Part shown: piece after piece, positions 1 through 29,532 of the stretch
How the letters are laid out: each line of letters begins with the position of its first letter
Position numbering within the stretch: the stretch's first letter is position 1
NCBI GenBank assembly: GCA_035549015.1
Contig: DASZRW010000135.1
Location: 3,387 to 67,386, forward strand
Reading direction: 5' to 3'
DNA length: 64,000 nt
Source: Candidatus Kapaibacterium sp.
Lineage (GTDB): Bacteria > Bacteroidota > Ignavibacteria > OLB7
Made by a program: the position numbers and the translations under genes
Notes under the pieces: model-generated
The model's database searches: none
Told to the model about the DNA's origin: nothing
What the model saw: only the letters and a program-made list of their open reading frames with translations

Positions 1-899
1 GCGACAAGATCCGCTCCGTGATCGCAAGCGGCACCTACAGCTCCTATCTCGGCGATTCGAATCTCGCGGACGAAGTGGAACTGGTGAAGTTCACACCGAT
101 CCCGCTGTCGCTGGAGGAACTCTCCAAACTCTGGTCCGTGTTCTTCCAGACGCAGTACAATCTCTCGATCGCCTATCAGGCAACCGTTGTTCTGATCGAT
201 GCGGATATGGCGCCGGTATCGCCGCTCCCCGTTCGCACGGCGAACTTCTATACGACACCGTACCAGCAGATCGTGGTGGACAAGGTTGTCAACAGTCTGG
301 ACCCGCTGCAGCCGATCACGCCATCCGATACGATCAGAATCATCGGGAGCGGACTCGATGCCGGCACGATGATGGTGCGGATCGGCGATGCCGAGGTTAC
401 GCCTGCAACCGTTTCGCCGAACGAACTGACCCTGGATCTCACAACGGTTCCGTCGGCATCGTTGAGCGCCGGGGTGCAGGGACTGCAGGTGGTGAAGAAG
501 GGTTCCTTCGGAGCGCCGCTCGTGCCCGGCGGCGATCCGGCTCCGCACACGGTGGCGGAGTCGAACGTGGCGCCGTTCGTGGTACGTCCGCTGATCACGG
601 CCGCCATCACGGCCAGCACGGACCTGGACGACGTTACCACCATCACGGTGCACGTGGCGCCGACGGTTGCCATGGAACAGCGTGTGTTGCTGCTTCTGAA
701 CGAGACAGCATCCTCCACGCCGGACTCGTACGCACTGCTCGCACCCGCGCGCGATGCCGATGGCACCACCGTCGTCTTCACGGTGAAGGGAGCAAAGGCC
801 GCCACCTTCCTGGCACGCATCCAGGTTGATGGTGCGGAAAGCCTGCTGACACGCGATGCGGATGAAACATACAACGGTCCCACGGTGACGCTGCCGTAG
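1..899 (+). CDS. 3' part of an eCIS cap/tail-terminator-like gene (DUF4255/Afp16-like C-terminal region) with an IPT/TIG-like beta-sandwich extension; 5' end lies outside the window
   Basis: The frame is open from the window edge and stops at 899. The LSLEELSKLWSVFF...LSIAYQATVVLID segment resembles the conserved C-terminal end of DUF4255 cap proteins as I recall them. A T/V/P-rich Ig-like stretch follows. It sits next to phage-tail-like genes. Confidence 0.4.
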   Translation, partial: DKIRSVIASGTYSSYLGDSNLADEVELVKFTPIPLSLEELSKLWSVFFQTQYNLSIAYQATVVLIDADMAPVSPLPVRTANFYTTPYQQIVVDKVVNSLDPLQPITPSDTIRIIGSGLDAGTMMVRIGDAEVTPATVSPNELTLDLTTVPSASLSAGVQGLQVVKKGSFGAPLVPGGDPAPHTVAESNVAPFVVRPLITAAITASTDLDDVTTITVHVAPTVAMEQRVLLLLNETASSTPDSYALLAPARDADGTTVVFTVKGAKAATFLARIQVDGAESLLTRDADETYNGPTVTLP

Positions 900-950
900 C
901 GCGCGCCACGGTTGATGCCGGGGAACGAAACCAGGGCCCGCGCTCCGCAG

Positions 951-1030
951 GCAGCGCGCAACAGATACGGAGGCAGCGCGCAACGGATGCGGAGGCTGCA
1001 CCGCAACGGGTGCGGAGGCTGCACCGCATG
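951..1030. repeat. About 3.5 tandem copies of a 22-bp imperfect direct repeat (GCAGCGCGCAACAGATACGGAG-like) in the intergenic region
   Basis: Copies are read directly at 951-972, 973-994, 995-1017 and a partial copy from 1018. They lie between the cap-like gene stop and the next start. Confidence 0.6.
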
Positions 1031-1150
1031 CAGCATCCTCTGCGTCCTTCGCGGCGCGGGGAACCGTTGAGCCGGAGCCCGGCTGATCGATACCATACAA
1101 CGTCATGCCGGCATGCCTGGAGCTGCCGGCAATCCACCATCCACGGAACA

Positions 1151-27600: not shown

Positions 27601-29337
27601 GTGACAGGCTGGACCGGAGCAATCGGCCCACAGGGTCCGATCGGAGCAACAGGCGCCACCGGTGCGACGGGCGCGAAGGGAGCGACGGGTGTTGATGGCG
27701 TGACCGGCTGGACCGGCGCGATTGGTCCACAGGGTCCGATCGGAGCAACAGGCGCCACGGGGGCAACCGGCGCGAAGGGAGCGACCGGTGTCGATGGCGT
27801 GACCGGCTGGACGGGCGCGATAGGCCCTCAAGGTCCGATCGGTGTGACGGGTTGGACCGGCGCGATTGGTCCACAGGGTCCGATCGGAGCAACAGGCGCC
27901 ACCGGTGCAACCGGCGCGAAGGGAGCGACCGGTGTCGATGGGGTGACCGGCTGGACCGGAGCGATTGGCCCGCAAGGCCCGATCGGTGTGACCGGCTGGA
28001 CCGGAGCGATCGGCCCGCAGGGTCCGATCGGCGTGACGGGCTGGACGGGGGCGGTAGGCCCGCAAGGTCCGATCGGCGTGACCGGCTGGACCGGGGCGAT
28101 AGGTCCTCAAGGCCCGATCGGAGCAACAGGCGCCACCGGTGCGACGGGCGCGAAGGGAGCGACCGGTGTCGATGGCGTGACCGGCTGGACCGGAGCAATC
28201 GGCCCACAGGGTCCGATCGGTGTGACGGGTTGGACCGGGGCAATCGGCCCACAGGGTCCGATCGGAGCAACAGGCGCGACCGGTGCGACGGGCGCGAAGG
28301 GAGCGACCGGTGTCGACGGGGTGACCGGCTGGACGGGGGCGGTAGGCCCGCAGGGTCCGATCGGCGTGACGGGCTGGACCGGGGCGATCGGTCCTCAAGG
28401 CCCGATCGGAGCAACAGGCGGCACCGGTGCGACGGGCGCGAAGGGAGCGACGGGTGTCGATGGTGTGACCGGCTGGACGGGGGCGCTAGGCCCGCAGGGT
28501 CCGATCGGTGTGACCGGCTGGACGGGCGCCATAGGCCCGCAGGGTCCGATCGGCGTGACGGGCTGGACCGGAGCAATAGGTCCGCAAGGCCCGATCGGCG
28601 CAACAGGCGCCACGGGGGCGACCGGCGCGAAGGGAGCGACGGGTGTCGACGGTGTGACCGGCTGGACGGGGGCGGTGGGCCCGCAGGGTCCGATCGGTGT
28701 GACCGGCTGGACGGGGGCGATTGGCCCTCAGGGTCCGATCGGCGTGACAGGTTGGACGGGTGCGGTCGGTCCACAGGGAAATCCTGGTGCGGATGGTGCG
28801 GCAGGGCCAACCGGTCCGAAGGGCGCCACCGGCGCCGACGGTGTCACCGGTCCTCGCGGCCCCAACGGACTGCCGGGTACACCGGGCGCCACGGGGGCAA
28901 CTGGCGCCACCGGTGCGGTTGGACCCTCGATCCCGGCGGACTGTACTCTGCGAGCGGGCGATCCTGTACAGTTCATTCTCAGCCCGACGAACGGTCCCGC
29001 CAACCCGGGTGAGATCGGCGGAGACAACAAGGCCTTTCGTTCGCGCGTCGATCTTACCAATGCAACGCAGGCACGCGTCATGGTCACGATCACCGCAACC
29101 GGCCAGTTCCCGGGAAGCTTTGCCCGCGGAGAATACTCCACCGATGGGCTTACGTGGACCTCGTTGTCCGGTGCGAACGATTCACCCACTGCGCCGCTCG
29201 ATCAGATCGGTGTTGCGAAGTCGCCCTGGATTACCCTCACCACTGGCGCTCGGAACGATGTCATGCTGCGCATGGCGTACTTCGGCGGCAACGGCCAGAC
29301 CGTTACCATCACGTTGATGTCGGTGCAGTTCAAGTAG
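24643..29337 (+). CDS. collagen-like triple-helix repeat protein (1564 aa), putative fibre; duplicated ~110-aa N-terminal domains; ~1200 aa of G-X-Y; ~135-aa C-terminal globular domain
   Basis: Uninterrupted GXY triplets built from [15 protein letters not shown] and [21 protein letters not shown] modules. The N-terminal domains at residues ~1-115 and ~130-230 are clearly paralogous. The C-terminal non-collagen domain is beta-rich. Confidence 0.85.
25860..28760. repeat. about 2.9 kb of near-identical tandem 45-nt and 99-nt coding repeats inside the collagen-like gene
   Basis: Repeated GGCTGGACCGG[AC]GC[GA]AT[TA]GG[CT]CC[GTA]CA[GA]GG[TC]CCGATCGG[CT]GTGAC unit. The reverse strand produces long Pro/Arg-rich artefact ORFs across the same span. 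Confidence 0.85.
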
Positions 29338-29489
29338 CTGCATCGCCGGCAACGGACCGTTCCGGCCGGCCGAGCCGCAGGAGCGGATCGGCGGAGGTTC
29401 CGCATGAGGTTGATGTTCGGTGTCGGCAGCGCGGCGCATGCCAAGGCATACGTCACACGATCCCCCAATCTGCGCGCCGATGCCACCCT

Positions 29490-29532
29490 GCGCTCCCCAT
29501 GTCTCTCCCGGCATGGGGAGCGCTGCATTTTT
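29490..29532 (+). terminator. rho-independent terminator closing the fibre operon
   Basis: Perfect 12-bp stem GCGCTCCCCATG / CATGGGGAGCGC with a 10-nt loop. TGCA TTTTT follows, ~150 bp downstream of the collagen-like gene stop. Confidence 0.6.

Follow-up and report, generated by a model that had tools for sequence, protein, structure and literature searches.

We analysed a 64-kb stretch of DNA (contig DASZRW010000135.1; hereafter the window, 64,000 nt in full) from an uncultured member of 'Candidatus Kapabacteria' (Bacteroidota). Window positions 1-29,532 hold one plus-strand block of 18 genes with high third-position G+C content and no interruption (G+C content of the window, approximately 63%), closed by a terminator-like hairpin (Table 1). 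The block makes up roughly the distal 85-90% of a single co-directional, chromosomal operon. We read the product of this operon as a phage-tail-like contractile injection system (CIS) of the extracellular CIS (eCIS) superfamily, in a non-Afp/PVC, 'lineage II' style, and assign this reading a probability of about 0.88. The comparison was based on contig L001, which overlaps the window, and on the related loci L011 (JGI Ga0556615_0001522), L004 (ENA contig_56618), L007 and L010 (both ERZ27336822), and L008.

Table 1. Features of the operon. Coordinates are window positions, except for the tape-measure-like gene, which is placed on contig L001. Numbers following family names are E values unless bits are given.
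Feature	Coordinates	Strand	Basis
Tape-measure-like protein, 705 aa	L001:807-2924		Low complexity, position
Cap/terminator (Afp16/Pvc16-like), C-terminal 298 of 417 aa	3..899	+	Pfam Pvc16_N 2.7e-14, TIG/IPT 7.8e-5
Tandem repeat, 22-23 nt, 3.2 copies, consensus AGGCAGCGCGCAACGGATGCGG	949..1028	.	Tandem Repeats Finder
First slot gene, 190 aa, unassigned	1028..1600	+	No family match
Tsi3-family protein, 165 aa	1964..2461	+	NCBIfam Tsi3_fam 4.3e-13, 49.8 bits vs cut-off 45; Pfam Tsi3 27.6 vs 26
Lgt-like polytopic membrane protein, 423 aa	2511..3782	+	Pfam LGT 4.2e-16
312-aa protein, immunity-type fold	3890..4828	+	Fold comparison
AAA+ ATPase in the Afp15/Pvc15 position, winged-helix (WHD) N-terminus and one classic-clade AAA module	4998..6980	+	WHD 2.4e-13, AAA 1.1e-24
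ATPase partner, 156 aa	6980..7450	+	Start overlaps ATPase stop; conserved in lineage
CIS_tube-family protein, 219 aa	7856..8515	+	Pfam CIS_tube 2.4e-6, 27.9 bits vs cut-off 27
Conserved baseplate-hub protein, 103 aa	8712..9023	+	phrog_46 'baseplate hub' 0.0014; phrog_7145 0.0045
gpD/gp27-like hub, N-terminal VgrG/Afp8 equivalent	9025..10161	+	Phage_GPD 2e-5 (below gathering cut-off), VgrG_rel 6e-10, phrog_52 6e-10
gpV/gp5 OB-fold spike, C-terminal VgrG/Afp8 equivalent, separate gene	10158..10649	+	Phage_base_V 4.5e-27
Cys-containing protein, 109 aa, Afp10 position, candidate spike tip	10646..10975	+	Position
gp25/Afp9 baseplate wedge and sheath initiator	10976..11332	+	GPW_gp25 1.1e-17
Baseplate_J/gp6-like wedge, paralog 1 (J1), 857 aa	11336..13909	+	TIGR02243 1.3e-83, Baseplate_J 2.4e-8
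Baseplate_J/gp6-like wedge, paralog 2 (J2), 1043 aa	13906..17037	+	TIGR02243 2.8e-70, Baseplate_J 1.1e-11
gpI/gp7-like N-terminus, 754 aa, Afp12/Cis12 position	17047..19311	+	Tail_P2_I 1.1e-3, TIGR02242 3.2e-5, phrog_521 8.7e-5
Tail fibre, 1738 aa, N-terminal DUF6519, then repeated Ig-like modules	19328..24544	+	DUF6519 1.4e-67
Collagen-like protein, 1564 aa	24643..29337	+	Collagen 5.7e-159
Intrinsic-terminator-like hairpin closing the operon	29490..29523	+	14 pairs (10 G-C), loop 6, T-rich tail TGCATTTTTG

The first open reading frame (ORF) of the window encodes the C-terminal part of the cap; the full-length 417-aa protein is encoded on contig L001 (L001:2921-4174) and is identical to P0241, which carries the NCBI name DUF4255 protein. 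Pvc16_N is the former DUF4255, and the match of the first ORF to this family agrees with the initial annotation, which had called the ORF a DUF4255-like cap fragment. No solved chain matched the cap (phmmer, PDB). The ATPase resembles CDC48/PAN-type AAA models in hidden Markov model (HMM) comparisons. Its orthologs in L004 and L011, with 51-52% identity, adjoin the cap gene, and the same WHD and AAA architecture is found next to the cap also in L003, a locus of Aetokthonos hydrillicola. A conserved 156-aa gene, which had been left out of the earlier component list, follows the ATPase gene directly; its product is 35-37% identical to those of the 110-aa (L011) and 130-aa (L004) genes that follow the ATPase there. 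In the alignment, its motif ELSIGELVLHG resembles ISIGRIEVRA of the tape-measure-like protein, and this shared strand-like motif hints that the two proteins may have a common binding site. The 169-nt spacer that precedes the ATPase gene also contains a perfect 15-nt tandem repeat (TCCGGATGCATTCCG, 2.5 copies, window 4855-4892).

The genes for the tube initiator, hub, spike, and baseplate wedge follow. The 219-aa CIS_tube protein, which is 46% identical to its L011 ortholog, is a probable tube initiator and would correspond to the beta-barrel part of Afp7/Alg7 or to an Afp5-like protein. The 103-aa protein had been called a LysM protein, but no LysM HMM matched it, and the two phrog families in Table 1 were the sole matches; searches of Pfam (E up to 10), the PDB (phmmer), and 50,697 phage records (tblastn) found nothing. 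The protein is 48% identical to a 99-aa ortholog in the same position of L011, and a LysM-like, gpX-type identity is no more than plausible. In AlgoCIS, Alg7 combines a tube-like beta-barrel with a LysM domain, and the linker between them is cleaved (PMC8894135). By analogy, the 219-aa barrel gene and the 103-aa hub gene may reasonably be regarded as a split Alg7-like arrangement. The 109-aa protein, previously proposed as a PAAR-like tip, had no match in Pfam (E up to 10), NCBIfam, the PDB (phmmer), PHROGs, or the 50,697 phage records (tblastn), and its single-sequence AlphaFold model was discarded at a pLDDT of 35. Positional orthologs of 106 to 110 aa are present in L007, L008, and L011. 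For both J paralogs, the closest solved chain was Streptomyces Cis11 (9gtp_1K; E values of 3.8e-13 for J1 and 2.9e-12 for J2). Beyond Cis11 (9GTP), the paralogs had only weaker matches, to T4 gp6 and to a small number of other baseplate proteins from phages. The gpI-like protein has orthologs in L007 and L008 and had no match among solved chains (phmmer, PDB). The wedge of the Streptomyces system CIS-Sc consists of two copies of Cis11 and Cis12 (PMC12237407), and the comparison suggests a similar 2+1 wedge of J1, J2, and the gpI-like protein, in which a J1/J2 heterodimer would take the place of the two Cis11 copies. Altogether, the component list of the initial annotation stood for the cap, ATPase, tube, gpV, gp25, and two J proteins; the gpD and gpI-like matches were weaker but consistent with it, and the LysM and PAAR proteins were not confirmed.

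Two giant genes end the operon, as had been stated. The first encodes a protein with N-terminal DUF6519, which is eBAP5, one of five baseplate-anchor domains of eCIS tail fibres (PMC12923769). P0121 is 100% identical to this protein, and many of the DUF6519 homologs (n = 3683) are fused to lectin, Ig, or beta-propeller domains. The second giant gene encodes a collagen-like protein, probably a second fibre; collagen-like shafts are known in eCIS fibres (PMC12923769). This protein consists of a duplicated N-terminal domain of approximately 110 aa, a G-X-Y run, and a globular C-terminal domain of approximately 135 aa. The G-X-Y run is unbroken over 1128 residues (residues 302-1429), which corresponds to a length of approximately 0.3 µm in our own calculation with the standard collagen rise of approximately 0.29 nm per residue. 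An SLT match in the N-terminal domain was weak (E value of 1.3e-3) and below the cut-off. In L007 and L008, a DUF6519 gene is likewise followed by a collagen-like gene with a homologous duplicated N-terminal domain. Tandem Repeats Finder identified a 45-nt unit as the building block of the collagen-like gene between 25860 and 28778 (approximately 2.9 kb), with higher-order periods of 144 to 279 nt. Because another assembly of the Kapabacteria organism (L006) ends in the collagen-like gene, the repeat number in the window may be an assembly estimate. In addition, a G+C-rich hairpin without a T-tail (CGGCAGCAGCCGGCGGG-AATC-CCCGCCGGCTGCCG, window 24548-24582) lies right after the DUF6519 stop codon and could serve within the operon to stabilise RNA or as an attenuator before the collagen-like gene.

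The arrangement of these genes is that of a compact operon. From the 103-aa gene to the DUF6519 gene, the gaps between genes range from -4 to +16 nt, thereby indicating translational coupling. The ATGA overlaps that had been reported from the spike through the second J paralog were confirmed at the hub/gpV, gpV/109-aa gene, and J1/J2 junctions, and the strong terminator that had been placed at the end of the locus is a 14-pair stem with a T-rich tail. Capsid, portal, terminase, and lysis families were not found among the larger ORFs of 29.4 to 64 kb, where housekeeping genes lie instead, in agreement with what the initial annotation had said of the window; likewise, no virion family was matched among the ORFs scanned in the whole 64-kb window or in the 3.3 kb upstream of it. 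Scans of viral contigs with the DUF6519 protein and with the 312-aa protein singly gave no matches, and neither an Rfam family nor a tRNA gene was detected in the window.

The sheath, tube, and tape-measure half of the operon had been predicted to lie upstream of the window. Over 14,828 bp, L001, a Logan contig, has the same sequence as the window; it reaches 3,275 bp farther upstream, where it contains, in order, the last 18 codons of a tube gene, a 241-aa T4_baseplate (gp51-like) gene, the gene for a 705-aa low-complexity protein, and the N-terminal part of the cap gene. The 18 residues with which L001 begins, RDYEVAEPAEPTFTEPAN, correspond to the gp19-type tube C-terminus in L004, ERDYEVAEPSEPTFTEPA, and the tube gene is thus placed immediately upstream. 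The prediction was thereby borne out for the tube C-terminus and the tape-measure-like gene; the gp51-like gene lies between them. The tape-measure-like proteins of this lineage share a conserved N-terminus and a C-terminal motif (ISIGRIEVRA...LSLxEYLKQ) around a hypervariable low-complexity centre, and range from 322 to 705 aa. The 705-aa protein is the longest, compared with 322 to 604 aa in the relatives, and its position makes it the putative tape-measure equivalent. In the orthologous loci L004 and L011, the sheath gene sits directly upstream of the tube gene. Four independent assemblies (L001, NCBI CAZXUY010000125.1, the sister metagenome-assembled genome [MAG] JAFDZV010000024.1, and L010), which represent two close strains and the 56%-related L010, all end inside the 3' part of the gp19-type tube gene. 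The starts of all contigs of the Kapabacteria organism or its sister cluster around one point of this gene, to within about 110 bp; CAZXUY010000125.1 starts approximately 111 bp upstream of the L001 start, as inferred from coordinates. The identity between loci was 81-83% for the tube protein and 42-55% for the sheath and gp51-like proteins. The four assemblies likely break in the tube gene because it is far more conserved than its neighbours and acts as an inter-genome repeat in assembly. Surveys of contig content will therefore tend to see the eCIS operons of this tube-conserved lineage split in two.

Next, the gene order was compared with that of the related loci. L011 (42.8 kb), whose cap and ATPase are 50% and 52% identical to those of the window, has sheath, gp19 tube, T4_baseplate, 322-aa, cap, WHD-AAA ATPase, and 110-aa genes in that order, and continues with a DUF4157/OmpA protein, CIS_tube, a 99-aa protein, gpD, gpV, a 106-aa protein, gp25, and two J proteins. 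The order of L004 agrees with that of L011 as far as L004 extends, and L007 and L008 show the order hub, gpV, 109-aa, gp25, J, J, gpI-like, DUF6519, and collagen-like. Orthologs are found in matching order over the stretch that starts with the gp51-like gene and ends with the second J paralog, and the identities to the related loci (44-56% for the cap, 51-52% for the ATPase, and 41-65% for gpV) fit orthology across the block. From the identical contig and these relatives, the full order was reconstructed as (sheath), gp19-type tube, gp51-like, tape-measure-like, cap, a variable slot, WHD-AAA ATPase, and small partner in the 5' half, followed by tube initiator, 103-aa hub, gpD, gpV, 109-aa, gp25, J1, J2, gpI-like, eBAP5 fibre, collagen-like fibre, and terminator in the 3' half. 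The initial annotation had considered the order atypical; related loci in other organisms share exactly the same order, which is normal for the lineage. Six eCIS subtypes with subtype-specific arrangements, including lineage II, have already been described (PMC6899500), and an order differing from that of Afp and PVC is not a novelty. DUF4157 proteins are encoded after the ATPase partner in L004 and L011 and directly after the cap in L010. Locus L003 (JAALHA020000003.1) of the cyanobacterium Aetokthonos hydrillicola falls into two divergent parts: one strand carries the DUF4157, ATPase, and cap genes, and the other the sheath, tube, gp51-like, and 604-aa genes, followed by polysaccharide-synthesis genes, with no baseplate genes nearby.

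The four genes between the cap and the ATPase are the only local departure of the operon from its relatives. This slot is empty in L011 and L004. In L010, it contains the gene for a DUF4157 protein of 1257 aa along with genes for pentapeptide-repeat, DUF6714, and 171-aa proteins, and the cap-ATPase position is a variable swap site for accessory genes in the sublineage. The intergenic gaps in the slot are 49 to 363 nt, whereas the coupling of the baseplate genes is tight. All four genes are retained in the sister MAG (86-90% nucleotide identity), and their G+C content and third-position G+C content showed no clear difference from the host, so composition gives no sign of recent transfer. The initial annotation had listed four unknown genes here, and this description holds for the first of them; the other three were identified as Tsi3-family, Lgt-like, and immunity-fold genes and are not unknown structural genes. 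The 190-aa product of the first gene is 81% identical to its counterpart in the sister MAG and 31% identical (E value of 9e-12) to the 171-aa product of the last slot gene of L010. The tandem repeat at 949-1028 fills the spacer between the cap gene and this gene and reaches the annotated start codon. The repeat may have a regulatory function, and translation of the gene may in fact start at an internal Met codon at approximately 1151.

The second slot gene encodes a member of the Tsi3 family with a hydrophobic, signal-like segment at residues 1-26. Tsi3 is a periplasmic immunity protein against Tse3, a type VI secretion system (T6SS) muramidase; no Tse3-like muramidase was found next to the gene, either in the operon or in the window. 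The third protein, with an estimated six to seven hydrophobic segments, carries a C-terminal extension of approximately 150 aa (residues 264-423) without a family match. It falls far below the NCBIfam equivalog cut-offs and is a paralog, not the housekeeping prolipoprotein diacylglyceryl transferase Lgt; it is 93% identical in the sister MAG. The fourth protein belongs to a small, uncharacterised family of approximately 310 aa that has no Pfam match and forms 136 representative clusters among 1.84 billion proteins. Its fold resembles the polymorphic-toxin immunity proteins TsiV/PA0821, TsiT/Imm52, and CdiI, and Foldseek ranked PA0821 first (E value of 7e-3, TM of 0.35). PA0821 is a DUF3396/TsiV-type immunity protein against PD-(D/E)xK nuclease effectors (PMC9635880). 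None of 60 members of the 312-aa family matched DUF3396 or Imm52 in Pfam. P0369, a homolog of the 312-aa protein, is encoded 16 nt downstream of the gene for an RHS protein of 1012 aa. Their polymorphic-toxin locus also has a second RHS gene as well as Imm6 and VipB genes, and recurs in three metagenome contigs. Because of these fold matches and the position of P0369 after an RHS toxin, we consider it fairly probable that the 312-aa protein is of the immunity type. A metagenome scan with the 312-aa family recovered only two short loci, and Pfam searches of their neighbours were uninformative.

In the RHS toxin locus with P0369, L014:6947-10942 (JGI Ga0216256_1000103), the C-terminal domain of the RHS protein has no Pfam match and shows a D...EAK pattern that we read by eye as PD-(D/E)xK-like. 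Together with the member of the 312-aa family that follows it, this RHS protein seems to form a toxin-immunity pair, so far undescribed, in a polymorphic-toxin locus associated with T6SS. In the search for a toxin matching the immunity-like genes, the L014 RHS C-terminal domain and the L014 neighbours were compared by tblastn with the window, L001, and L010, and nothing significant was found. A PADLOC scan of the slot genes gave only generic AAA similarity of the ATPase to IetA and TRIP13, which does not indicate a defence system.

The assignment to eCIS is carried by the conjunction of cap, WHD-AAA ATPase, and eBAP5/DUF6519 fibre. Of the eight core components of eCIS (Chen et al. 2019, PMC6899500), the cap, AAA+ ATPase, tube, and equivalents of Afp8, Afp9, and Afp11 are present at this locus, as is an additional marker, a fibre with an eBAP baseplate-anchor domain (PMC12923769), in the form of DUF6519. 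For Afp7, the tube initiator that carries LysM, the locus offers the CIS_tube barrel gene and the adjacent 103-aa gene without a LysM match, and the Afp2/3/4 sheath was seen in the orthologous loci L004 and L011. Another additional marker, DUF4157 (eCIS_core; Geller 2021 and PMC12923769), had no match among the 19 scanned operon proteins and the three upstream proteins. Several points weigh against the assignment. No effector or toxin was recognised, and the eCIS-typical DUF4157 is absent from all ORFs scanned. The sheath gene of the Kapabacteria organism was not seen, as every assembly stops in the tube gene. Neither LysM nor PAAR identity was confirmed. Finally, the label 'extracellular' is a putative one, taken from the fibre genes. 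The initial annotation had preferred eCIS to a prophage tail, and our results side with it. A prophage tail module or R-type tailocin is very improbable, even though the gpD, gpV, gp25, J, and I families are common to P2/Mu-like phages and the region upstream of the tube is unseen in the Kapabacteria organism, because the eCIS-type cap, ATPase, and fibre are present, orthologous loci carry DUF4157 genes, host genes and not head genes lie upstream of the sheath in L011, no virion or lysis gene was matched in 64 kb, and the 103-aa and 109-aa proteins matched no phage record by tblastn. The locus adds to a known, widespread, but experimentally untouched eCIS lineage and is largely complete and well conserved. 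It adds a Kapabacteria representative to this lineage; in the literature searched, we found no paper linking Kapabacteria with contractile injection.

The presence of immunity-type genes without DUF4157 suggests, by inference only, an antibacterial role, with the payload encoded elsewhere or unrecognisable. A tentative and rather doubtful extension is that the slot is an embedded immunity island, comprising the Tsi3-family and TsiV/TsiT-like proteins and perhaps the 190-aa and Lgt-like proteins, or alternatively that the Lgt-like protein is a new membrane adaptor of a CIS that fires within the cell. If the immunity island were true, the machine would be an interbacterial weapon with toxins elsewhere or of an unrecognised class, in an operon that lacks the DUF4157 module, for loading or as a toxin, which is otherwise near-universal. 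Immunity genes are missing beside most validated antibacterial eCIS toxins (Geller et al. 2021, PMC8213781), and an operon with immunity-family genes and no recognisable toxin is a useful, if modest, lead on bacterial targeting.

The four slot genes could instead encode payload or effectors. The slot of the nearest relative, L010, holds the 1257-aa DUF4157 (eCIS_core) protein, a class that is linked to eCIS toxins (PMC8213781); the 190-aa protein has its homolog in the same slot, and no other cargo candidate is visible. We nevertheless regard this as unlikely, because the Tsi3-family match lies above curated cut-offs and the signal-like N-terminus is typical of periplasmic immunity proteins, the best folds of the 312-aa protein are immunity proteins and its homolog occupies the immunity position after an RHS toxin, and a polytopic Lgt-like protein could not pass through the tube lumen.

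An equally improbable reading is a cytoplasmic or membrane-associated CIS that fires inside its producer, in the manner of CIS-Sc or the thylakoid-anchored tCIS, with the Lgt-like protein as a membrane adaptor analogous to CisA, the membrane protein needed for CIS-Sc firing (PMC12237407). Streptomyces Cis11 is the only solved eCIS-type baseplate protein that is detectable by sequence for both J paralogs, the tube of the lineage is closest to tCIS All3324 and the AlgoCIS tube, the membrane protein encoded in the operon is conserved in the sister MAG (93% identity), and no lysis genes were found nearby. However, two large fibre genes, one with eBAP5, are conserved at the end of the operon, whereas CIS-Sc has no fibres (PMC12237407). 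The Lgt-like protein is also unlike the bitopic CisA, and its slot holds unrelated genes in relatives.

For the eCIS that we favour, the inventory, orthology, and operon structure established here, combined with established knowledge of Afp, PVC, AlgoCIS, and CIS-Sc, permit a mechanism to be proposed. The gpD and gpV proteins, with a tip, would form a trimeric spike on the tube-initiator ring, and spike and ring would serve as the nucleus for six wedges made up of gp25, J1, J2, and the gpI-like protein, in which J1 and J2 probably occupy the two gp6-like positions filled by two Cis11 copies in Streptomyces. Growth of tube and sheath would then follow the tape measure and be stopped by the cap, and the AAA ATPase may help with assembly or with the loading of cargo. 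Target binding would fall to the eBAP5 fibre and the collagen-like protein, and contraction of the sheath would push spike and tube across the target envelope. As for the target, the immunity-type genes hint at bacteria.

Beyond the operon, the window contains housekeeping genes, which encode a metallophosphoesterase, M28 and M24 peptidases, ABC-F, RecA, RecR, a heparinase-like enzyme, and OmpA. The mechanical ORF of the metallophosphoesterase (29404-31032) overlaps the operon terminator, so the downstream gene must start later, probably at an ATG near 29611. A separate region, window 37398-42000, carries a transposase-type helix-turn-helix gene on the minus strand (37398-37838) and two ORFs without a family match (38146-39048 and 39149-40360). 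Its G+C content falls to 0.58-0.59, and the region may have been inserted as a small island that has no connection with the eCIS.

The locus was finally compared with known systems. A T6SS was rejected; no TssJLM membrane-complex or TssB/C-ClpV families were found among the ORFs scanned, and a cap and a tape-measure-like gene are present, both of which are absent from T6SS (PMC6899500). The slot proteins recall Tsi3, TsiV (PA0821, DUF3396), and TsiT (PA3908, Imm52), but the context here is an eCIS operon and not a T6SS, and no Tse3-like muramidase or PD-(D/E)xK nuclease toxin is adjacent or in the Kapabacteria window. With Afp of Serratia entomophila and PVC of Photorhabdus, the locus shares an inventory of tube, hub/spike, gp25, gp6-like, gp7-like, fibre, tape measure, ATPase, and cap. 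However, ATPase and cap are encoded last in Afp and PVC and mid-operon here; the VgrG equivalent is fused there and takes the form of two genes, gpD and gpV, here; fibres are anchored by the adenovirus-like Afp13/Pvc13 type there and by eBAP5 here (PMC12923769); and the gp51-like gene of the Kapabacteria locus is a further difference. No Afp or Pvc chain matched the J, I, or cap proteins at E<0.01 (phmmer), and membership in the Afp/PVC type (lineage I) was rejected on the mid-operon cap and ATPase, the separate gpD and gpV genes, and the eBAP5 fibre.

AlgoCIS (Algoriphagus, subtype Ib) and tCIS (Anabaena, All3324) have the closest solved tubes to that of the lineage (2e-15 and 3e-16), and the barrel and LysM parts of Alg7 are comparable to the separate 219-aa and 103-aa genes. 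In contrast, the cap, J, and I proteins showed no detectable sequence match to these two systems, the fibre types differ, and tCIS is thylakoid-anchored. CIS-Sc of Streptomyces coelicolor (type IId, PDB 9GTP) is cytoplasmic and belongs to a Gram-positive host; it has no fibres and carries CisA in the fibre position, whereas the Kapabacteria locus has two fibre genes. In both, a cap and an AAA ATPase are encoded; among solved chains, both J paralogs of the Kapabacteria locus are closest to Cis11. CIS-Sc uses two copies of a single Cis11 where the Kapabacteria locus encodes two distinct J paralogs, and the wedge of both systems likely consists of two gp6-like subunits and one gp7/I-like subunit.

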